Shown: one piece after another, positions 10,870 through 32,653 of the stretch
How the letters are laid out: each line of letters starts with the position of its first letter
Numbering within the stretch: position 1 is the first letter of the stretch
DNA from: a virus
Taxonomy: Duplodnaviria > Caudoviricetes
Length of the DNA: 64,000 nucleotides
Direction: 5' to 3' (one strand)
Virus record (IMG/VR): IMGVR_UViG_3300037067_009230
Span: 12,156-76,155 of that record
Notes under the pieces: generated by a model
What the model was told of the DNA's origin: nothing
Databases searched by the model: none
What the model saw: only the letters and a program-made list of their open reading frames with translations
Translations under genes and position numbers: made by a program

Positions 10870-11664
10870 ATGTGCTTCAAAAAACCAAACTTTATTTTCA
10901 CAGAACCATTTGACTTCAGATTAATATCTGCTACCATCAATGATTATCCGGGTAGTATGAATGATCTCCGTGGGTGTAACAATGACGGTAGGCTTGTTAA
11001 AGATACCGTTCTATCTTATAAATACAATGCTGATGTTCTCAGGCTTATTGATTCTCAGGCTACTGTATCTGCTGTTACTAATGCTATTAGCAGTGCTATA
11101 TCCCTACTTAAACCGGGAGCCATAGTGTGTATATTGGCTGATTCATGTTTTTCAGGTGATATTACCAGACTTATGATGAATTTCATGGGTAGTATTCCTA
11201 CACCTGAAAATTATAAGAGAAACAGATTTTATCAAACTCCGGGAGTCGTTCCTACGGTTAATTATCCACTCTTTCATAAATCAGGTGATATTCGTTGGAT
11301 AGCAATGGGTGGATGTGGCAAAGTAGCTTACAGTGCTGATGCTTATATCAATGGGGATTATTATGGAGCATTTACTTACTATGCCATGAACTCACTCCGT
11401 TTTGATATGACTTATAGGCAGTGGTATGAAGCGATTAAAAAATATCTTCCAAGTAGTTTATTTGAACAAGATCCTACATTTATGGGACCGGATGATTTAC
11501 TTGACTCAATAATTGGCTACAGGCAGACTCTATGGATTCATAATAGCAGCCACGGTACCCAACTTAACGGAACAAACGGGGATTCTGTAGATGAAGCTAT
11601 TTGTTTGTATGATGGCAATCTCAGAGATAAGGTGTATTATAATATCTTAAATAAGTTAAAATAG
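10870..11664 (+). CDS. Metacaspase/peptidase C14 family protein with rearranged catalytic His segment
   Basis: INDYPG...LRGCNND, ILADSCFSG (Cys93), SADAYING.YYGAFTY, QDP, and C-terminal HNSSHGTQ (His228)...DEAICLYD. Confidence 0.85.
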   Translation: MCFKKPNFIFTEPFDFRLISATINDYPGSMNDLRGCNNDGRLVKDTVLSYKYNADVLRLIDSQATVSAVTNAISSAISLLKPGAIVCILADSCFSGDITRLMMNFMGSIPTPENYKRNRFYQTPGVVPTVNYPLFHKSGDIRWIAMGGCGKVAYSADAYINGDYYGAFTYYAMNSLRFDMTYRQWYEAIKKYLPSSLFEQDPTFMGPDDLLDSIIGYRQTLWIHNSSHGTQLNGTNGDSVDEAICLYDGNLRDKVYYNILNKLK

Positions 11665-12092: not shown

Positions 12093-12557
12093 ATGAAAAA
12101 GTACTTTTTAATTTTATCTTTTGCCCTACTTACATTAGTAGGATCAGCTCAGGTAAGTAATCTATTTAAACCAATAGATAATGTTCTACTGGTTAGCAAT
12201 AACAGATCTCTTGTTAACAATAGAGGTATTCTGGATAATGTAGCTATGAGATTGAATGTGGGAGTGACTACTACCCAGAGTACTTATGTAAACACTGAAG
12301 ATAAGTTATTTGATAGTCATCCTATGGCTGCTGTTGGATTCGGCTTTGGTTTGCAGCACTATGTAGCCAGACCCAATGGAGAATTATTTAATGACTACGG
12401 AGCTAATCTACTTCTGCTTGTACCCACTGGTGTTGAAGGTTCAAAGGGTATGGGAGTGGGCTTATTTGGGAATGTAGATAAGTTCCAGCTTGGTGTGGAT
12501 TACAATTTCACATTAAAGAAAGTTAGTTTAGATACCGGGATAACACTTAAATTTTAA
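12093..12557 (+). CDS. Exported outer-membrane beta-barrel-like protein
   Basis: Sec signal peptide, alternating beta-strand pattern and C-terminal Phe (GITLKF). Confidence 0.6.
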   Translation: MKKYFLILSFALLTLVGSAQVSNLFKPIDNVLLVSNNRSLVNNRGILDNVAMRLNVGVTTTQSTYVNTEDKLFDSHPMAAVGFGFGLQHYVARPNGELFNDYGANLLLLVPTGVEGSKGMGVGLFGNVDKFQLGVDYNFTLKKVSLDTGITLKF

Positions 12558-12959: not shown

Positions 12960-13274
12960 ATGCTTTATGACCGCTTGTTAGGCACAGTACATTTTATTAT
13001 GATTTCAATTAAAAAAGCAGATTGGACAAAGAAAAGAGAATACTCAAAAGAAATGAAACTTGATGGATTTATTTCTTCCGTAGAATTAAGCGGAATGCAC
13101 TTTACTCAGATTGATTCACTCGGAATTGATTCTCGAAAATTAGATAATCCAAAAATACTTAAACAGAAATTTGAAGCAGATAATAATTTGCGTTGTATCT
13201 GTTTGGATTACGGAGGCAGAACTAAAAAATATTGGTACAAAGTTGGCGACTTGCGGAAGTTGTATTGTGCCTAA
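12960..13274 (+). CDS. Cassette-borne hypothetical protein (cassette C2; alternative start 12999)
   Basis: Stop TAA lies inside the terminal CTAAC box. Confidence 0.65.
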   Translation: MLYDRLLGTVHFIMISIKKADWTKKREYSKEMKLDGFISSVELSGMHFTQIDSLGIDSRKLDNPKILKQKFEADNNLRCICLDYGGRTKKYWYKVGDLRKLYCA

Positions 13275-13328
13275 CTAGCTAGTAAACATACTAAAGGTAT
13301 GTTTACTATACAAAAATCAGTAAATAAA
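13273..13328 (+). repeat. 56-bp attI-like array-terminal element, copy 1
   Basis: AACTAGCTAGTAAACATAC-TAAAG-GTATGTTTACTATACAAAAATCAGTAAATAAA; three copies in the window. Confidence 0.9.
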
Positions 13329-13363
13329 TACACTTTTAAGGCTAACAAAATAATCAGGTAATT

Positions 13364-17164: not shown

Positions 17165-17246
17165 CAGTTAACGTTAAATGTTTGTGCAGTTGGGGATTAT
17201 AAACCACTGCACTGTCAAAATAGTACTAACTTAATAAATACAGATT

Positions 17247-17549
17247 ATGAGCGAATTAGCACAAGACCCCCAATTGCATAAACATATTGTTGTGCGTAGT
17301 TATTTATCATTCTTTGCAGAAAAACACAAGTGCCACATTGATAAAATAATGGTTGGAATGGTTGGGGGTGATTTGCATGTATGGAAATACGACGAAGGCG
17401 CAGCAAATATTTTTACACAACTCGAAATCATATCCAATTTTGAGACTGATGATAGAAAATGGATTTGTCAATTATGTGGCGAATTAGTTAACGGTAGAAA
17501 TGTAACATTTGAAGAATATCACGAAGGTTGTGGTGGCCTCTGTGTATAA
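17247..17549 (+). CDS. Cassette-borne protein with C-terminal Zn-ribbon-like motif
   Basis: ATG lies in the hairpin loop; CQLCG...HEGCGGLC. Confidence 0.65.
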   Translation: MSELAQDPQLHKHIVVRSYLSFFAEKHKCHIDKIMVGMVGGDLHVWKYDEGAANIFTQLEIISNFETDDRKWICQLCGELVNGRNVTFEEYHEGCGGLCV

Positions 17550-17557
17550 TTACGCAC

Positions 17558-17613
17558 AACTAGCTAGTAAACCTACTAAAAGTATGTTTACTATACAAAA
17601 ATCAGTAAATAAA
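17558..17613 (+). repeat. 56-bp attI-like array-terminal element, copy 2
   Basis: 54/56 identical to copy 1. Confidence 0.9.
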
Positions 17614-17628
17614 CAAAAAATTAAAGTC

Positions 17629-18182
17629 ATGAAAACAAAATTAACAGAAGCACAGAAGCAAGCTAATAAAGAGGCTAAACGAGCTAAAATAAAAGCTGAA
17701 AAAAGATTAAAAGAATAGAAGCTGAAAAAACCCAACCAGATGTAAAGGATATTACAATTACTATTGAATGGAAAAAGTCTCGGACATGGGGCGCAAATCC
17801 ACACGCAACGGCAGCCGTAAATTTTAAAGATAAAACAGCAGGCGAATTTAAAACAGGTTTTTACCGTTCTCCTGAAGGTAATTATACTTGTTCTGGGTGT
17901 GGGTACGATAAAGAAAGTACGGTTATTGCTCAGATATTTAATGACTTTCTGAAATACAAACTTTGGAGGCTTAGCCCTGAAAAATTAAAAGGTGGAAATG
18001 GATCCTTAGATAAAGGTCCGGCTCCATATGGAATTCATTTATATTCTGAAAATGAACCTTATTATGATGGAGGTATTGGAACAAGTTGCTATTATAATAT
18101 CTCTGAATACATTGGTGGTAAATTTGAATGCATTGCAAGTGGTAAAACGTTTGATGTTTATAAATATACTGATAACGAATAA
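17629..18182 (+). pseudogene. Frameshifted phage early gene (or sequencing error)
   Basis: MKTKLTEAQ...RLKE* continues in the -1 frame for 156 codons (ITIEWKKSRTWGANP...SGCGYDKES...YDGGIGTSC). Confidence 0.65.
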
Positions 18183-18262
18183 AGTTTTTGCCTGTTACAA
18201 GTCAGGGATTAATACAGAGTATCCCCCAGATAAGGGGGTAATGTAACCAAAAATTAAAAGAT

Positions 18263-25417: not shown

Positions 25418-25884
25418 AATACCTTATTTATGAAATAATGTTTCCAAAGTCTTTCCTGCTCTGTCTTATCACCACTGGTCTTAATCCAGTATAGTAAAGA
25501 TAGGAAAAAATTATTCTTCCAACCCCCATTTTTATCAAACCATTTTTTAAACTCCTTTGTCTCATTCTCTTCCTTTACTTTTTTCTTACTATTCTTTTCC
25601 ATTTCAAGTATTTTACTAACTTGGTCAGAAAAAGCAGCACCCCGAAGAGTAAATGGTCTATTTTTTGATTTGTTAAACTCTTTACATTCGGCTATCCACA
25701 TATTACGATACTTAGTAAATAGTGCATCGGCTTCTTCACCTTCAGTATCCTTTAAATCGGACCGGTAAGTAAAAAATAAATTTATAAGTGTGGTAAGAGT
25801 CTCCTGTTTCTTTGCTCTTAATCTTCTAACAAATCTGGGATCTTTCTCCTTAGTTTCGTTTTGAACAACCTTTTTCTTTTCCAT
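25414..25884 (-). CDS. Hypothetical protein
   Basis: 156-aa ORF coupled to both neighbours. Confidence 0.65.
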   Translation of the reverse strand: MEKKKVVQNETKEKDPRFVRRLRAKKQETLTTLINLFFTYRSDLKDTEGEEADALFTKYRNMWIAECKEFNKSKNRPFTLRGAAFSDQVSKILEMEKNSKKKVKEENETKEFKKWFDKNGGWKNNFFLSLLYWIKTSGDKTEQERLWKHYFINKVL

Positions 25885-27830
25885 TAGTTTAAAATTAAAT
25901 TGTTATTTTCTTTAGTAAAATTTATTGTATTAGCATATAAGTTATCCAGAGTACTGGAATGAGATATTACATAAACACTCTTTCCTTCATCGGCTTTCAT
26001 CCTAATTAAATCAAATACAGCATTTTCACCATCCTCATCCAAACCATCAAAAACTTCATCCATAATTAATAGGTTGATATCTGTATTAATTGAAATGAGA
26101 TCGTACATCGCAAAAATTAAAACGATATCTAATCTTTGCTTCTCACCCCCTGAAAATTCTTTATAGTCTTTATTTAATTTATCCCCTAAAGAGCATATTG
26201 TCGTAAAAGGCTTGCTAGATTTCGTTAAATCAATTGCAAATTCAATTGATATTCCAAGCCGTTCTCCATATTTGCGTGTATTCTCGTTAAGCTGGGCCAG
26301 CATAGCGTTAAAAATAAATGCTTTTATTCCACTGGCACCAAATCCCTTCTCAGACCACCATTTTATTATTTTAATCTCTTCTTGTAAATCCGTGATATTA
26401 CTATTAAGTGATTCAGATTTAATCTTCATTAAAGTAATTGCTTTCCCCTGTGATGCTATATTAAAATCTGGAGCCTTTTCATTCTGTAAAGATTTTAACC
26501 TAATCTTTTCATTTTCTAATAGGACTATCTCAAATAGGGTATTTTCAATGTTATTAAGTTCTTGATATCTGGCAGCAACTACATTGTATCTATCATTTGT
26601 GGTAGTAATATCGTTTTTAACTCTTTTAATCCCTTCTGTGACATCATCTAAAGCCTGTGTTAATTGAAGTAATTTATTATTTAACTCAAGTATCTGAGTA
26701 TTTAAATCTTCAATCTCAGCCTCAGCCTCTTTGTTAGCAGTCGAATAAATCTTTTCAATATTTGCATGATTAGTTTGATTAATAGCCTGATGACATACAG
26801 GGCATAATCCTTTTACAATAGATTCTTTAACAATACCTTTATTTTCCTCAATCTCTTTCTTAATTTGATTTATTCTAGCAGTAAACTGGTTAATTCTATA
26901 ATTATTATTATCAATCTCAGACTGAATACGTTTCTGGTCATTATCAATCTCTACCAAATCCAATCGATACTTATTCTTGGTACTAGTGAGTTCATTATAT
27001 TCCTGTTCAATCTTATCATGTTCTTCTTTGTCATAATCAAGAGGAGGAACAACTACTTTTAACTCATTATTATAATTAGTAATAAGAGTTTCAAAACCCT
27101 TAATATTTGATTCACAGTCTGAAATCTTATTAGCCTGATTCTGACCCCACTCCTCACAAAGACGTTTATCCCGAACAAGGGTAGCCTCTGCCATAGTAAT
27201 CTGAGAATTAAGGGTATCAGCCTCAGATATGATCTTACTAAGATTTTGATTCTTCTCAGTAAGATCCAGTTCGGCTTTATGCTTACAGATATTAACCCAC
27301 TCTACATCAAATAATTGCTCAAACAAGGCTCTCTTATCTTTATTATCCTGAGTGATTAATCGGGCCATCCTTTGACCAAACATTACAGAGTTCATAAATG
27401 TCTTAGGATCAGTGCCAAGGAGTTTATTAATTCTTTCCTGAGTTTCATCTTTATTAATTCCTGGGAAAAGTTGTTCATTATTTTTCCAGAGCATGAGTGA
27501 ATCATTACCCTTTAAACCGTTAGTATCTCCCTTATAATCCAAATGACGAGCAATGGAGTAATCTTCTCCATCTACTTCAAAATACGTTATTACTCTGGTT
27601 CCTTTCCAATTTGAGGGTCTTATCTCTTCCCATGAAGCGACTTTATCCTGATTAGTTTCTTTTAAGTTTGTACCAAATAAACACCATACCACAGATTCAA
27701 ATAATGTTGTTTTTTTAGTACCATTAACACCTTTAATAAGATTTAATCCGGGACGGTCAAGATCAAATATTAATTGATTGACGATACCACGGAAACCATC
27801 TATTATTGCTTGTTGAAATTTAATTTTCAT
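25884..27830 (-). CDS. sbcC: SbcC/Rad50 (gp46-like) ATPase
   Basis: Walker A variant GVNGTKKT, coiled coil, Zn-hook CPVC, FSGGE signature, MDEVFDGLD, ISH. Confidence 0.9.
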   Translation of the reverse strand: MKIKFQQAIIDGFRGIVNQLIFDLDRPGLNLIKGVNGTKKTTLFESVVWCLFGTNLKETNQDKVASWEEIRPSNWKGTRVITYFEVDGEDYSIARHLDYKGDTNGLKGNDSLMLWKNNEQLFPGINKDETQERINKLLGTDPKTFMNSVMFGQRMARLITQDNKDKRALFEQLFDVEWVNICKHKAELDLTEKNQNLSKIISEADTLNSQITMAEATLVRDKRLCEEWGQNQANKISDCESNIKGFETLITNYNNELKVVVPPLDYDKEEHDKIEQEYNELTSTKNKYRLDLVEIDNDQKRIQSEIDNNNYRINQFTARINQIKKEIEENKGIVKESIVKGLCPVCHQAINQTNHANIEKIYSTANKEAEAEIEDLNTQILELNNKLLQLTQALDDVTEGIKRVKNDITTTNDRYNVVAARYQELNNIENTLFEIVLLENEKIRLKSLQNEKAPDFNIASQGKAITLMKIKSESLNSNITDLQEEIKIIKWWSEKGFGASGIKAFIFNAMLAQLNENTRKYGERLGISIEFAIDLTKSSKPFTTICSLGDKLNKDYKEFSGGEKQRLDIVLIFAMYDLISINTDINLLIMDEVFDGLDEDGENAVFDLIRMKADEGKSVYVISHSSTLDNLYANTINFTKENNNLILN

Positions 27831-27856: not shown

Positions 27857-27912
27857 TTTATTTACTGATTTTTGTATAGTAAACATACTAAAGGTGTGTT
27901 TACTAGCTAGTT
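27857..27912 (-). repeat. 56-bp attI-like array-terminal element, copy 3
   Basis: Matches copy 1 except for the hairpin loop, which is reverse-complemented (CTTTA vs TAAAG), and one substitution. Confidence 0.9.
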
Positions 27913-28267
27913 AGCAGCCATTTTTAAGGAAGTCTGGTAGCTTCTCATAACATTCACTTAAAAATAATGGTCTGTCTTTGTAATGCTTTCGTAACTTCAA
28001 GAGCATATTTCTTTGATATTCCACCTGTTTAACAAAGTCATTGTATTCGGTTTCTGTAAGTTCATTTTGTCCTTCTTTTCTAAAGAATTTATTGTAGAAA
28101 TAAACAAGTGAATCTTTGCACTTTTGAAGTTCCTCTTGGTCAGCAGATAATAAACGGCTGCTAACCGCATCTATACCCAATTGGGTAGTTTCTGAGGTAT
28201 TCAAATTTTTGTGTTCCATTGTTACTTTATTTTTTAAGTTGATAATTTTGTGTTTCAAATTGCCCAA
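27911..28267 (-). CDS. Cassette D8 protein (probable start 28219 in hairpin loop)
   Basis: QLGIDAVSS N-terminus comes from the hairpin arm; stop inside CTAAC. Confidence 0.65.
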   Translation of the reverse strand: MGNLKHKIINLKNKVTMEHKNLNTSETTQLGIDAVSSRLLSADQEELQKCKDSLVYFYNKFFRKEGQNELTETEYNDFVKQVEYQRNMLLKLRKHYKDRPLFLSECYEKLPDFLKNGC

Positions 28268-28319
28268 CTGGGCATAGCTGCAACACGTTAGGTTTAATAA
28301 TTACCCCTACGCACCGGGA

Positions 28320-28490
28320 CTAATTACTATCAGGATCGTATGTTTTATATTTCCATCCTAACCATGCCATTCGTCCAAATTTCTTATCCAGTTCTAAATC
28401 AATGTGGGCCATTGACCAATTCTTACTGATTTCAAATTCCTCTGATGACCCATTTTCTAATTCTACAATTATTGTTCTCATTTGTCGCAT
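28320..28490 (-). CDS. Cassette D7 protein (56 aa, not in ORF track)
   Basis: Translated by hand: MRQMRTIIVELENGSSEEF...WLGWKYKTYDPDSN. Confidence 0.55.
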   Translation of the reverse strand: MRQMRTIIVELENGSSEEFEISKNWSMAHIDLELDKKFGRMAWLGWKYKTYDPDSN

Positions 28491-28577
28491 AATTAATTTC
28501 GTTATCTGATCTCTTCTGTAATTACTGAAATCTAACTACGTGTAAAATTCATTGAAACGAAATTTTACACCTGTCCG

Positions 28578-28874
28578 TTAGCAAACATGCCGATAGAGGT
28601 ACCCACTTTTATGAGCGCGTTCATCAACTTGTTGCATTAGTTCTTTTGCTGATTCACTTCCGTAAGGTCTGCGATATTTGACTTCTTCTGTGCCGTCTGG
28701 CCACTTTTGCACAATTTCAGTAGTTACAAAGGCACGATTTGCTAACAATGTATTTACGCCATTGGCGGTTACATTCTCGCTGGATAAGTTATCGGTTTTC
28801 ATATATTCGTTTTTACGTTTAAAATTTGTACTAATTAATCGCCAACAGGCGCAAATACTCACCGTTAGCGGCAA
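28578..28874 (-). CDS. Cassette D6 protein (probable start 28802)
   Basis: Start in hairpin loop; stop inside CTAAC. Confidence 0.6.
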   Translation of the reverse strand: MPLTVSICACWRLISTNFKRKNEYMKTDNLSSENVTANGVNTLLANRAFVTTEIVQKWPDGTEEVKYRRPYGSESAKELMQQVDERAHKSGYLYRHVC

Positions 28875-29167
28875 TTAAGCGATTTTATGTACTCATTAGC
28901 AACATAACTTGCTTTGCATTCATCAAACTCATTAAGTGTTGATTTGTACCATATCAAAAAATCGCTTAACAGTTCGCTTTGCCCGCTAACATCAGGTATA
29001 GTTAATTGCCTTTGCTCCGATTCATACCCGTTCGCTAAGTGCTCAGAATATTCGGTCATTAACCTAATAACAGTATCATAACTAAATGCTGTTCCTTCTT
29101 CTTGTCCGTCTGGGTAACGAACTTTCTGTGTGTACCCTTTTTCAAATAAAAATTGATGTGCTTTCAT
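28865..29167 (-). CDS. Cassette D5 protein; N-terminal ~59 aa encoded within a giant attC-like hairpin
   Basis: QLTIPDVS marks the GTT junction; stop inside CTAAC. Confidence 0.65.
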   Translation of the reverse strand: MKAHQFLFEKGYTQKVRYPDGQEEGTAFSYDTVIRLMTEYSEHLANGYESEQRQLTIPDVSGQSELLSDFLIWYKSTLNEFDECKASYVANEYIKSLNCR

Positions 29168-29275
29168 AATTCGCTCACTATTTAAGTTATTAAAGTTTAT
29201 TACTCTTATTAAGGTTAGTAGTAATTTGACAGAGGCAACTAACCATACCTGTGTTCGTTAGGCACAATAAAAAGA

Positions 29276-29512
29276 TTACGGTGTATCTCTGAAATAAGCA
29301 GTTGTGATATGATATTTTGCTTGTTCATCTTTTGGTAGTTTATGAATTTCGTCCATAATCCTATTATACATCTCCACCTTTTTAATCTTATACTGTTTAA
29401 GTTCTTTATACCATTTTATGGCGAATGGTAGTTTAGTTATCCACCCAATTAAAATGCCTATTGCTAAAATAATACATGTACTCATATTATTAAGATTTAC
29501 TGTGCCTAACAC
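29276..29512 (-). CDS. Cassette D4 membrane-anchored protein (probable start 29485)
   Basis: Hydrophobic N-terminus CIILAIGILIGW. Confidence 0.6.
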   Translation of the reverse strand: MLGTVNLNNMSTCIILAIGILIGWITKLPFAIKWYKELKQYKIKKVEMYNRIMDEIHKLPKDEQAKYHITTAYFRDTP

Positions 29513-29638
29513 ATGCTATAAAAAATAGCGGTTTTAGTAGTTTGCACAAGGTTTATACTTCTATTTAATTTCACTGTATTTTGATAAATTTGTTCTTCTA
29601 TTTCCGCTACTTTTCATAGCATCAACGTTAGGGTGCAT

Positions 29639-29977
29639 TTAAAAATCCTTACACCAACTATCCAACTGAAAGGATAGACTGTCATATACTATTGTTTTAT
29701 TTGGTAACTTTCGCCAATTCCAATAACCTCGTGGATATTCTTCTGTTGCAATAAATTTAATTTGCTTTTTGATTAATCCAAACAAAATAGGTTGTTCGCA
29801 AGTCAAAATGATGTTACCCTTTTCGTTTGTTTCTTTTTTAATTGCTTTCATAAAAATTGAATAAAAACGCACCCTAACAATGTATATAGCAAATTGGGGG
29901 TGTCGTTCCAACTTGTATATTTGTGCTGTTAATTTACTTCTGTGTGGCTCGATAGGGTAGCACATTTTAATCCCCAA
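29639..29977 (-). CDS. Cassette D3 protein (alternative start 29851)
   Basis: Body bounded by gttagggtgc / gcaccctaac. Confidence 0.6.
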   Translation of the reverse strand: MGIKMCYPIEPHRSKLTAQIYKLERHPQFAIYIVRVRFYSIFMKAIKKETNEKGNIILTCEQPILFGLIKKQIKFIATEEYPRGYWNWRKLPNKTIVYDSLSFQLDSWCKDF

Positions 29978-30021
29978 CTTGCCATATACTTAACGTTAGT
30001 TGCAAGGCTAAGTCCATGCAT

Positions 30022-30852
30022 TTAATCAACATTTGTGGGTAAATCCGTAAAAGAAAAAAGCCCACGCTCTTTTGCTTTTTCAAAGCAATTAGGGTTAATG
30101 TCACAACCAATAAAACTTCGGTTTAAGTCTTTACAAACTTCTGCTGTTGTAAAACTACCTGAATAAAAGTCCGCAACTAAATCACCTTCATTGCTACTTG
30201 CTTTAATAATTCGTTCAATTAATGATTTTGGTTTTTGGGTATCATACCCAAGTCTTTCAGAGTTAGTCGGCCCTAAATTATTCAATTCCCAAACATCATC
30301 AATAGGTGTTGAATCTTGTATTTTATAAACAACATCCCCATTTTCATCCCTTTTCATTACCTTTTTGCCATCTTTCACATCTACCTTATTTTTCTTTCTT
30401 GGTGTTTCTAACGGTAATCTTAATTCATTAAATATTATTTTGTCGGTTTTACCATAAAATATAAGTATATCGTGGTTTTTAGCAAACGCCTTTTGTTTTA
30501 TACTCCATTTATTGTAACTCCAAATAACCTCATTCACAAAATTATCATACCCAAATATATCATCCATAATACACCGCATCCAATGGTTTATTTTTGTGTC
30601 CATTTGTAGGTAAATGCTTCCTGTTGGTTTTAATATCCTGTGCATTTCTTTTATTCGTGGTATGTAGTGGCTTTCAATTTCGCTTCGTATTGGCTTTATA
30701 TCTTGATAGTCTGCAAATCTTCTACCAGTACCATAGAGTATATCACAATAAATTAAATCAATCGTGTTGTCTTTAATTTCTGCCATCAATTCTAAATTGT
30801 CGCAAATTCTAAGGTCTAAAAACCCCTCCCCATTTTTTTCTTTTACTCTCAT
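30022..30852 (-). CDS. N4/N6 DNA methyltransferase (beta class), cassette D2
   Basis: Motif IV variant YCDILYGTG, TQKPKSLIERII, motif I DFYSGSFTT, FIGCDIN. Confidence 0.85.
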   Translation of the reverse strand: MRVKEKNGEGFLDLRICDNLELMAEIKDNTIDLIYCDILYGTGRRFADYQDIKPIRSEIESHYIPRIKEMHRILKPTGSIYLQMDTKINHWMRCIMDDIFGYDNFVNEVIWSYNKWSIKQKAFAKNHDILIFYGKTDKIIFNELRLPLETPRKKNKVDVKDGKKVMKRDENGDVVYKIQDSTPIDDVWELNNLGPTNSERLGYDTQKPKSLIERIIKASSNEGDLVADFYSGSFTTAEVCKDLNRSFIGCDINPNCFEKAKERGLFSFTDLPTNVD

Positions 30853-31022
30853 TCGTTCATTTAATTAAGTTTCTACTAATTTTACCGCCCAGCATATAAC
30901 AATGTATATAATTTATAGGCAGTTATGTTAATAATTCAATCTTTATTTCTCGTTTAAAGTATGTAGGTAACTCAAAATTCGTAGCTCGAAATGCCTACAA
31001 ATCATATACAAACCGTTAGCAC

Positions 31023-31262
31023 CTATTTTAAAATGAATGACTGACAATCATCACATATAAAACTATGAGCATAAACAGATTTTAATTCGCACCATGAGCA
31101 ATGACCATATGTGGCACCCGTATAGTATTTACAGTTCCCGTATTTATAAAAAACAGGTGCTAACACAGGCTCAACTGCAATAGCTGGAGAAGTATGTTGC
31201 GTAGGTCTTACTCTTTTTGCCATGTTCGTTGTATTTTGATAATTAAGTATTTCAAATTCCAC
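31023..31262 (-). CDS. Cassette D1 small Cys-rich protein (probable start 31223)
   Basis: CKYY...HCSWC...ICDDC; start in hairpin loop. Confidence 0.6.
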   Translation of the reverse strand: MEFEILNYQNTTNMAKRVRPTQHTSPAIAVEPVLAPVFYKYGNCKYYTGATYGHCSWCELKSVYAHSFICDDCQSFILK

Positions 31263-31283
31263 TACATGCGGTTAGCATCAACG

Positions 31284-31676
31284 TTAGACACCTATTTCAA
31301 AAGAATAATCACTCCCATTGATAGTTTCTTTTTCATAATAATTACATAGTTCACCAAGGGAATAGAAAACAGGTATATTATGTTTCTTTGCAAGTGCTAC
31401 CTCATCATCTGCGCCAACGCTCTCACCAGATAAACGCAGTACACAATCACAAACTAGTAGCCATATATTATCTATAGTAATCCAATCATTGTCGGGTCTT
31501 GGCTGTACTACATTTTGAAAATGATTTAAAAGTGGTACAAAAGGCACAAAATTTAAATTCATGAGAATATGTGCAGTATCTATCTGCCTATTTACATTTG
31601 AGATTTTATTACCCAGTGTATAAGGACTTGCGATATAAACCTTAATTGAATCTTTAGTCATATTTGGGAAAGTCAT
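31284..31676 (-). CDS. DUF1937/DUF4406-like (nucleoside 2-deoxyribosyltransferase-like) protein
   Basis: KVYIASPY...WLLVCDCVLRLSGESVGADDEV...IPVF. Confidence 0.75.
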   Translation of the reverse strand: MTFPNMTKDSIKVYIASPYTLGNKISNVNRQIDTAHILMNLNFVPFVPLLNHFQNVVQPRPDNDWITIDNIWLLVCDCVLRLSGESVGADDEVALAKKHNIPVFYSLGELCNYYEKETINGSDYSFEIGV

Positions 31677-32653
31677 TTTATTAAAATTAATCCATAGTTT
31701 AAAACCTTCTCATCTAATTTAGTGACTTCTGCATAGTTTTTTATAATAGTCTCCGGTGCAAGGTCTGTTCTGAAATTATTTAACATTTCCTGCTGCTTAG
31801 TGGTTTTTGTATTAATGACAGGAGACCATACCACATATTGCTGTTGTTCCCACTCAGTTAACTCAGATCCCTCTTCTTTTCTAATGAACTGGGGAAATTT
31901 ATCTGTGATGTCCTTAAATGATATAGTATTAGGATCATCTAAGTCTAATATCCAGAATCCCTTCCGTTTTCCAAGATCTCCGAGATCCCTATGCATAGGA
32001 CTTCCGACATTAATAAACTTATCAGTTATCTCTCCACCATCATGGACATGACCATTAAACACCATATCAAAATTATCAAATAATGAATCATCTGGTTGAA
32101 TATGATCTTTCTCTGGAAAGCCAGAAGCTACCATCTGGTGCATGAGAAGATAACTTTTACCTGTAGTATATGTTTGTTTCACTTTATCCTGTAAACCACC
32201 AAGAACCTTTTTAAAATGCTCCGGATATTCAAAATATGAAATACCAAATATATGATTATTGTTATCGGTAGATAGCCGACTCATATCATTTAATAGAATG
32301 AAATTATCAAACAAAATAGCCAAATGTTGAAGGGCACTGGTAGCCGGTTGGTCTATGAGATTTTTACTTGCTTGATCATGATTACCAGAAATAGCTATAA
32401 TCTTGATTAATGGATATTTCTTAAAGTTATTCTTGAAGCAGGCAATAATAGCATCCTCAGCTTCAGTGGACATAATCTGCATCAAGTTATAAAGATCCCC
32501 CGGCAATAAGATATATTTTATTTCATTTACACTTGCAAAATTAAACAGGTAATCAAGATATGCAATTCCATTATTTAACCTGCGGTTATCCTGATTGAAT
32601 TTCTGATATTTATGCACGTGGATATCTGACGTAACAATAGCTAATTCACTCAT
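31673..32653 (-). CDS. sbcD: SbcD/Mre11 (gp47-like) nuclease
   Basis: SDIH, PGDLYN, GNHD, NGHVH motifs. Confidence 0.9.
   Translation of the reverse strand: MSELAIVTSDIHVHKYQKFNQDNRRLNNGIAYLDYLFNFASVNEIKYILLPGDLYNLMQIMSTEAEDAIIACFKNNFKKYPLIKIIAISGNHDQASKNLIDQPATSALQHLAILFDNFILLNDMSRLSTDNNNHIFGISYFEYPEHFKKVLGGLQDKVKQTYTTGKSYLLMHQMVASGFPEKDHIQPDDSLFDNFDMVFNGHVHDGGEITDKFINVGSPMHRDLGDLGKRKGFWILDLDDPNTISFKDITDKFPQFIRKEEGSELTEWEQQQYVVWSPVINTKTTKQQEMLNNFRTDLAPETIIKNYAEVTKLDEKVLNYGLILIK

Follow-up and report, generated by a model that had tools for sequence, protein, structure and literature searches.

A probable integron-type cassette array with reversed gene polarity in a virulent-type phage

Integrons are the textbook bacterial gene-capture device, and phages were thought to carry only occasional integron fragments. 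The question addressed here was raised by a 64,000-nucleotide stretch of phage DNA (IMG/VR record IMGVR_UViG_3300037067_009230, positions 12,156 to 76,155; called the window below), in which an array of eight cassettes, each consisting of a hairpin site and the open reading frame (ORF) behind it, lies between an sbcD-like and an sbcC-like gene (window 27857-31288). Are these hairpins recombination sites of the integron kind, and how are the genes oriented with respect to them? The array is probably a phage integron-type cassette array without a recombinase of its own, that is, a cluster of attC sites without an integrase (CALIN), built on an attC-like hairpin family of Bacteroidota and with reversed coding polarity.

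The hairpin sites and the polarity of their genes

When the whole 76-kb contig was searched for TAAC..GTTA hairpins, nearly all top-scoring sites lay in a 3-kb stretch or at 17167-17294 (Table 1). Read in the gene sense, a site opens with xCTAAC-G and a bulge of about 4 nt; two stem arms of about 18 bp then enclose a loop of about 70 nt, and a 2-nt bulge and T-GTTAGx follow. This palindrome, with cores xCTAAC...GTTAGx and a paired L box, fits the attC pattern RYYYAAC...GTTRRRY. An initial annotation, made from the letters of the window, had described the core-adjacent bulge as longer on the gene-upstream arm. This asymmetry was found at all window sites (4-6 nt after TAAC versus 1-3 nt before GTTA), and the bulge classes (5,3), (5,2) and (5,1) dominate the hairpins of 46 other viral contigs. 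None of the hairpins matched a family in Rfam 15, which gave two weak hits (E about 5) elsewhere in the stretch.

Sixty phage and bacterial sites were aligned and used to build a covariance model, R1. The consensus has 22 pairs, 17 in the stem and five in the core, of which 15 show compensatory changes; TAACG..GTTA is invariant. Three G.U/G.T pairs are conserved on the gene-sense strand only, in 58/60, 44/60 and 57/60 of the sequences. With R1, the gene strand of the window sites scored 55-113 bits and the opposite strand at most 28 bits, and when the sites were folded as single-stranded DNA the sense strand was the more stable at six of seven, by 1.2-5.6 kcal/mol. The covarying pairs and the three wobbles thus indicate that only the gene-sense strand folds well, the strand that according to the initial annotation is favoured by the wobbles, and the strand bias stems from the three G.T pairs together with a 4/2-nt internal loop.

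Relatives of the sites were sought with a 21-base asymmetric pattern derived from three window sites. It matched 46 IMG/VR contigs, most of them with hairpin arrays, in size classes of about 92, 127, 140 and 205 nt, and more than 120 bacterial genomes, mostly of Bacteroidota with a few of Marinimicrobia, Calditrichia, Ignavibacteria and Spirochaetes. On the complete chromosome of a Prolixibacteraceae metagenome-assembled genome (MAG; OY782875.1, G001:C1:1944075-2325666), at least 150 R1 sites are spread over about 380 kb (1.94-2.33 Mb), nearly all on one strand, and stop 5 kb from a Xer/IntI-like tyrosine recombinase gene (L167:1204-2310); if continuous, they form a very large chromosomal cassette array. 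Gilvibacter and Zobellia uliginosa have arrays of tens of kb lying within about 7 kb of a homologous recombinase gene. The Bacteroidota arrays are thus integron-like chromosomal arrays, and R1 models their folding (bottom) strand.

The polarity of the genes was then expressed relative to the folding strand. In a classical integron the cassette ORF is on the top strand and reads away from attI, and among 44 bacterial intervals flanked by like-oriented neighbouring sites, 40 indeed had their longest ORF opposite the folding strand. In the phages the reverse was found: the longest ORF was on the folding strand in 42 of 47 intervals, and all eight ORFs of the main window array lie on that strand. 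The proposal that the antisense strand of the window has classical integron geometry with the ORFs reversed is borne out by these counts. The same reversed layout is found in the cultured, virulent Polaribacter phage P12002L. Two of the bacterial exceptions are on a single short MAG contig with phage-type hairpins. A 4-kb contig binned in a Bacteroidales MAG (L106, PWLF01000077.1) has phage-type polarity and an H6-type hairpin, and is probably a phage fragment binned with its host.

As phage ORFs lie on the folding strand, the hairpin precedes its own gene and can hold its start codon. A start inside the hairpin, in a frame running at least 40 codons beyond it, was found at 24/85 phage versus 3/141 bacterial sites, and a start within 80 nt downstream of the hairpin at 42/85 versus 14/141. 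Hairpin loops are A-rich and often contain a start codon. The ATGs at 17247, 28219, 28802, 29167 and 31223, picked out in the initial annotation, are each inside their hairpin, and the claim that array genes start within their own hairpin loop holds for four of the eight; the other four start just past the hairpin. It is the 3' arm together with the core that codes for the N-terminal motifs QLGIDAVS, QLTIPDVS and NTLLA, as had been supposed. Because two of the three reading frames pass through the core without a stop, peptides of the types ...IPVVS and ...YTLL(A/G) recur. Three genes take their stop codon from the TAA of the following core. The site of cassette 4 is unusual: 200 nt separate its arms, and the 'loop' between them codes for residues 1-60 of the cassette protein. 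Growth of the gene, or the fusion of two units, may have split this site.

Cassette boundaries, exchange and recombinases

If each cassette had been inserted as a unit into a site, its two ends might carry the halves of one site. Every window cassette shows 8-10 nt of complementarity between the bases after GTTAG and the bases before the next CTAAC. In cassette 1, GGCTGCTAAC at the end of the cassette complements GTTAGCAGCC after hairpin H1, and around gene 6 the ends are GTTAGGGTGC ... GCACCCTAAC. When the 3' flank of one site was compared with the reverse complement of the next site's 5' flank, 3.8 of 7 positions agreed in phages and 5.2 of 7 in bacteria, versus 2.2 of 7 for the two flanks of the same hairpin and 2.1 of 7 for random pairs. 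We read this complementarity, from the sequences, as the signature of a site split on integration, like a split R box.

End complementarity alone cannot assign a hairpin to a gene; two natural variant pairs do so. Contigs L044 and L045 are 100% identical except for a 950-bp unit, consisting of a hairpin, a methyltransferase gene and CCTATAAC, placed right after CCTAAC. L189 and L190 differ in a stretch adjoining the recombinase gene, which starts with a different hairpin in each and is bounded by TATAAC↓G and ATAAC↓TAG (arrows, boundaries). Both pairs thus differ by a hairpin with the gene downstream of it, cut at TAAC. Hairpin type is also linked to the 3' flank in phages (5.9/7 versus 3.5/7; 13 pairs only), with no such linkage in bacteria, and near-identical hairpins of the H6 type, with the same 3' flank and leader and differing 5' flanks, stand ahead of unrelated genes in many contigs; H6 itself is 77-95% identical to hairpins of many other phage contigs carrying unrelated genes. 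The hairpin therefore appears to travel with the gene behind it, in agreement with the earlier suggestion that the upstream hairpin belongs to the gene. Complementary ends and TAAC-bounded indels are as expected for a cassette boundary at the G↓TT of R', with the cassette start complementing its own R''.

The abundance of these site types outside the phage was seen in Logan contigs of four public metagenome runs (X1, X2, X3 and X7; groundwater, landfill, aquatic and wastewater). Contigs broke and depth peaked at hairpins, and the summed contig depth at H6 (29755-30028) and H5 (29481-29617) was 10-40 times the phage baseline, which indicates that the H5 and H6 site types are common to many other elements in those communities.

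Most array-bearing viral contigs have no tyrosine recombinase. In the 327-kb phage L023 and in L028, a gene for a 268-270-aa recombinase stands right after the last cassette and on the same strand. The L023 enzyme is 45% identical (5e-68) to the bacterial array-adjacent enzyme, which in turn is recognised by NCBIfam NF040815 ('site-specific tyrosine recombinase/integron integrase'). Over its full length the L023 enzyme can be aligned with archaeal XerA; compared with VchIntIA, it is about 48 residues shorter between the two aligned blocks, the stretch in which the IntI-specific domain lies. The recombinases beside related phage and bacterial arrays scored below the cut-off of the integron-integrase model TIGR02249. 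A sub-threshold TIGR02249 match was considered as an integron-integrase call and rejected: ordinary Xer-bearing control genomes give such hits too, so these hits alone are no proof of an integron integrase.

A profile search yielded 80 viral loci. At the 35 loci with a recombinase of at least 41% identity and any hairpin, about 170 hairpins were upstream of the recombinase gene on the same strand, one was upstream on the opposite strand and none was downstream. Two loci at 37% identity also had same-strand upstream hairpins, and the 26 loci at 35% or less had none. In the recombinase-bearing phages (L179-L225) the arrays end in a conserved junction, TAAC↓TA(T/C)nATATAT, usually about 35-45 nt before the recombinase ATG, and TAAC↓TAnnATATAT is a candidate docking (attI-like) site. 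The cassette genes run toward this site and the recombinase gene. At the DNA level the layout in these phages is the classical one of divergent integrase, docking site and cassettes, with the genes flipped.

The array in its phage genome

The IMG/VR record is a single viral contig of 76,155 bp with a CheckV completeness of 92%. Its proteins include portal, large terminase, tail, DnaB helicase, primase and family A DNA polymerase, together with a Dda-like helicase, RNase H, a PDDEXK nuclease and the SbcC-like and SbcD-like proteins, and the phage is of virulent type. No match to the tyrosine, serine or HUH recombinase families was found in this genome. A CALIN is defined by two or more attC sites within a few kb and no integron integrase nearby; the array, with seven R1 hits in 3.1 kb of a genome without a recombinase, fits this definition.

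Five close relatives came from a metagenome scan; the SbcD-like protein as a query against IMG/VR gave no close relatives, and among GenBank phages neither a 10-kb megablast nor a blastn with hairpin H6 gave a match. In relative L176 sbcD and sbcC overlap, in L177 they are 224 nt apart, and in L175 two other cassettes lie between them, which identifies the array as inserted into a conserved operon. A gene without a hairpin stands between sbcD and cassette 8 of the window (31284..31676) and has no counterpart in L175-L177, the loci compared. Another contig, L174, from a different sample, is identical to the window through ninB-sbcD-g9-g8-H7 and on to the middle of the methyltransferase gene, where, close to the end of the contig, the two sequences part abruptly (L174:3190-3287; window about 30510-30600). 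The divergence could reflect a strain variant with another target-recognition half or an assembly chimera. L174 was considered as evidence on cassette exchange and rejected, since it is the same phage and the break lies in mid-methyltransferase and not at a cassette border, which makes it uninformative on exchange.

All three arrays of the window close with (C)TAAC followed directly, after the last cassette, by a common element of about 56 nt, as the initial annotation had described. The element was absent from every fetched locus and from IMG/VR, is exclusive to the present phage, and is unlike the TAAC↓TAnnATATAT junction of the recombinase-bearing phages. It occupies the attI position in all three arrays and may have an attI role. 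A reading of it as a relic docking site followed by the first codons of a recombinase found no support. Decay is most advanced in hairpin H8, which lies farthest from the element; a relative of H8 with intact stems is found at L005:8406-8536. This decay fits growth of the array from the end-element side.

Two other features of the window were recorded. At 18184-18254 (+) the sequence matches the type-P3 twister ribozyme with 51.9 bits (E 2.5e-08), more than Rfam's gathering score requires; the match overlaps the end of a small + ORF (18028-18246) about 570 nt past the end element of the second array. At 10870-11664 (+) a 264-aa protein is encoded, in which a caspase domain (Peptidase_C14) match is confined to residues 23-76.

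Table 1. Cassettes, hairpins, end elements and flanking genes (window positions; R1, covariance-model score)
Feature	Position	Strand	Details
Third copy of terminal CTAAC and 56-nt element	13271..13337	+	closes a small array at ~12.6-13.3 kb
Second array, single cassette	17167..17615	+	100-aa ORF 17247-17549 (loop start); terminal ACGCACAAC; 56-nt element 17558-17615
Additional hairpin (second array)	17167-17294	+	R1 87.6 bits on +
sbcC/Rad50-like gene	25884..27830	-	conserved flank downstream of array; Pfam AAA_23, SMC_N, SbcC_Walker_B
Array-terminal element	27857..27909	-	~56 nt; internal 12-bp inverted repeat; candidate attI-like position or phage regulatory site
Terminal core GCTAAC	27910..27915	-	closes cassette 1; its TAA is the gene 1 stop
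Cassette 1	27911..28292	-	H1 28160-28292; 102-aa ORF (28219 to 27911), start in loop; R1 85.8 bits; no family match
Cassette 2	28293..28582	-	H2 28531-28582 (52 nt, short); 56-aa ORF (28490 to 28320)
Cassette 3	28578..28869	-	H3 28741-28869; 74-aa ORF (28802 to 28578), loop start, stop is next core's TAA; R1 89.1 bits
Cassette 4	28865..29262	-	H4 28985-29262 (278 nt), coding loop; 100-aa ORF (29167 to 28865); arm encodes QLTIPDVS
Cassette 5	29263..29632	-	H5 29505-29632; 69-aa membrane-like ORF (29485 to 29276); R1 108.5 bits
Cassette 6	29633..30000	-	H6 29873-30000; 70-aa ORF (29851 to 29639); R1 113.4 bits
Cassette 7	30001..31020	-	H7 30895-31020; N6/N4 DNA methyltransferase (30852 to 30022); R1 90.2 bits; Pfam N6_N4_Mtase 1e-45; phrog_67
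Cassette 8	31021..31288	-	H8 31159-31288 (decayed); 66-aa Cys-rich ORF (31223 to 31023), loop start; R1 55.5 bits
Hairpin-less accessory gene	31284..31676	-	nucleoside 2-deoxyribosyltransferase-like, DUF7768
sbcD/Mre11-like gene	31673..32653	-	conserved flank upstream of array; Pfam Metallophos

Alternatives, mechanism and meaning

Compared with classical integrons, the system shares imperfect hairpins whose xCTAAC/GTTAGx cores match RYYYAAC/GTTRRRY and bound the cassettes, preferential folding of one strand, complementary cassette ends as with a split R' box, and, in relatives, arrays beside a tyrosine recombinase. Near-identical sites ahead of unrelated genes recall the Vibrio cholerae repeats (VCRs) of Vibrio. 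It differs in that phage ORFs lie on the folding (bottom) strand, with the site before the gene and the genes running toward the docking end, and in that no IntI with the additional domain is adjacent, the enzymes of related arrays being Xer-like and without the insert. The sites also lack conserved bulged bases, and have the G.T wobbles and the 4/2-nt internal loop instead. No Pc promoter is identified in this phage, in which promoters were not searched for. Clusters of attC sites in phages are already published. Qi et al. 2023 (PMC9892861; Qi, Rajabal, Ghaly, Tetu, Gillings) described 17 CALINs in phage genomes, treated them as phage-carried integron components, and showed that five phage attC sites recombined with attI1 under IntI1; the phages were virulent. 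Like the present array, theirs are integrase-less, in virulent phages, and carry DNA methyltransferases as cargo. Their P12002L_attC1 has the arrangement CTAACG-5 nt-stem..stem-ATT-GTTAG on the gene strand upstream of a methyltransferase, and their remark on P12002L is limited to 'divergent directions'. Systematic ORF reversal, start codons inside sites and a Xer-type recombinase are not described there, and our literature search found no paper on reversed cassette polarity, in-site start codons or an insert-less recombinase beside such arrays. IntegronFinder 2.0 reported one complete integron only in the phylum Bacteroidetes.

Several observations weigh against an integron-type array. The phage has no recombinase, and in a genome 92% complete this leaves activity here unproven and the array possibly a fossil. 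No single-base bulge corresponding to the extrahelical L-box bases is conserved in the consensus; together with the insert-less recombinase, this means that the chemistry may differ from that of classical integrons. P12002L_attC1 was not recombined by IntI1 in the study of Qi et al. 2023 (PMC9892861). H8 is decayed and does not fold as a hairpin, and H2 is truncated. The assignment of hairpin to gene comes from the two natural pairs and from the linkage of hairpin type to 3' flank in 13 pairs only. In the four metagenome runs no excision junction or circle could be called among the Logan contigs, the sides of the joints being short (20-33 nt) and the inserts of uncertain origin.

Could the hairpins instead be elements of the mRNA only? 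They might be processing sites, 5' stabilisers or presenters of translation starts, with the likeness to attC incidental or a co-option without DNA recombination. In phages the folding strand is the mRNA strand, G.U pairs are compatible with RNA, the A-rich loops hold start codons and the phage has no recombinase, all as such a role would have it. It does not account for the bacterial members, which are antisense to genes and beside a recombinase, for ends that are complementary across the gene body and would be superfluous in an RNA leader, or for the gain and replacement of whole hairpin-gene units exactly at TAAC, and no Rfam family matches; a purely RNA-level explanation is thus improbable. 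A secondary RNA role may form part of the preferred explanation. The promoter/terminator stem-loops (PeSLs) of T4-type phages are composite motifs, an early promoter joined to a terminator stem-loop, that act via homologous recombination (Arbiol et al. 2010; Comeau et al. 2014, PMC4122927), and modules of this kind would shuffle genes by short-homology recombination without a site-specific enzyme. In both cases small accessory genes of hyperplastic regions lie between conserved stem-loops in intergenic positions and are exchanged as modules. In the present system nearly identical hairpins stand ahead of unrelated genes, and the phage has recombination genes of its own. Judged on the exchange points the two differ: junctions fall at one four-base core and not at variable points within homology, the variable bases beyond this core covary between cassette ends, and in other phages and bacteria the arrays are strictly associated with, and oriented toward, a dedicated family of tyrosine recombinases. 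We consider PeSL-like modules a distinctly improbable explanation.

A passive fragment of a host chromosomal integron, taken up by the phage as with some Vibrio phages, would explain a hairpin family that is abundant in Bacteroidota chromosomes, and captured integron fragments in phages were described by Qi et al. 2023 (PMC9892861). Against this, gene polarity is the reverse of the bacterial one in 42 of 47 phage intervals. The ORFs are moreover co-oriented with the phage operon and start inside hairpins, dozens of unrelated phage contigs share the layout and some of them encode a recombinase, and the three arrays carry a common phage-specific end element, which makes simple uptake less probable again. 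Least probable of all is single-strand transposition by an HUH (IS200/IS605-type) enzyme cutting next to hairpins at TAAC. It would fit insertion 3' of TAAC, units ending in TAAC and strand-specific folding; the phage genome, however, has no Y1 transposase, the arrays are associated with tyrosine recombinases, and each unit has one hairpin and not two subterminal ones.

Returning to an integron-type array as the preferred reading, the mobile unit in gene sense would consist of C, a 4-nt bulge, stem, loop, stem, T-GTTAG and X, then the gene, then X'-CTAA, and the complementary ends X and X' would complete the stem in the excised circle. We infer that a Xer-like tyrosine recombinase would act on the folded gene-sense (bottom) strand, with strand exchange within or next to the TAAC core; for the present phage the enzyme would have to be supplied in trans, by its host or by another phage infecting the same cell. 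With its genes on the folding strand, the array would be read through from the surrounding phage (sbcD) operon toward the end element, and this co-orientation suggests that transcription may need no Pc promoter. Each cassette mRNA would then have the hairpin as its 5' leader, with the start codon often in the A-rich loop and the N-terminus encoded by the 3' arm.

A wider interpretation is advanced tentatively, as a possibility somewhat short of probable: that phages of Bacteroidota run a mirror-image integron, using their hosts' folded sites and Xer-like recombinase family with cassettes on the folding strand, so that polarity forms a barrier between viral and cellular cassette pools and the site doubles as leader, start and N-terminal module. 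If this is true, a cassette would be expressed only in a phage-type array and be silent (antisense) in a bacterial one, and vice versa, and the barrier would keep viral and cellular pools functionally apart despite common exchange machinery.

The array would mean that a folded site of the integron class organises accessory genes in many uncultured phages. Its cargo comprises anti-restriction methyltransferases and small ORFans, the latter of which may be anti-defence genes. Reversed polarity, an insert-less Xer-like recombinase and sites overlapping translation starts are three departures from the textbook integron. They bear on the origin of integron integrases from Xer recombinases and on how strand choice is encoded without extrahelical bases, and they raise the question of whether orientation insulates viral from host cassette pools. 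For annotation, the cassette boundaries also supply a rule by which short phage genes, and the start codons that they really use, can be called, and the system offers a testable mechanism for the gain and loss of single genes in the hyperplastic regions of phage genomes.

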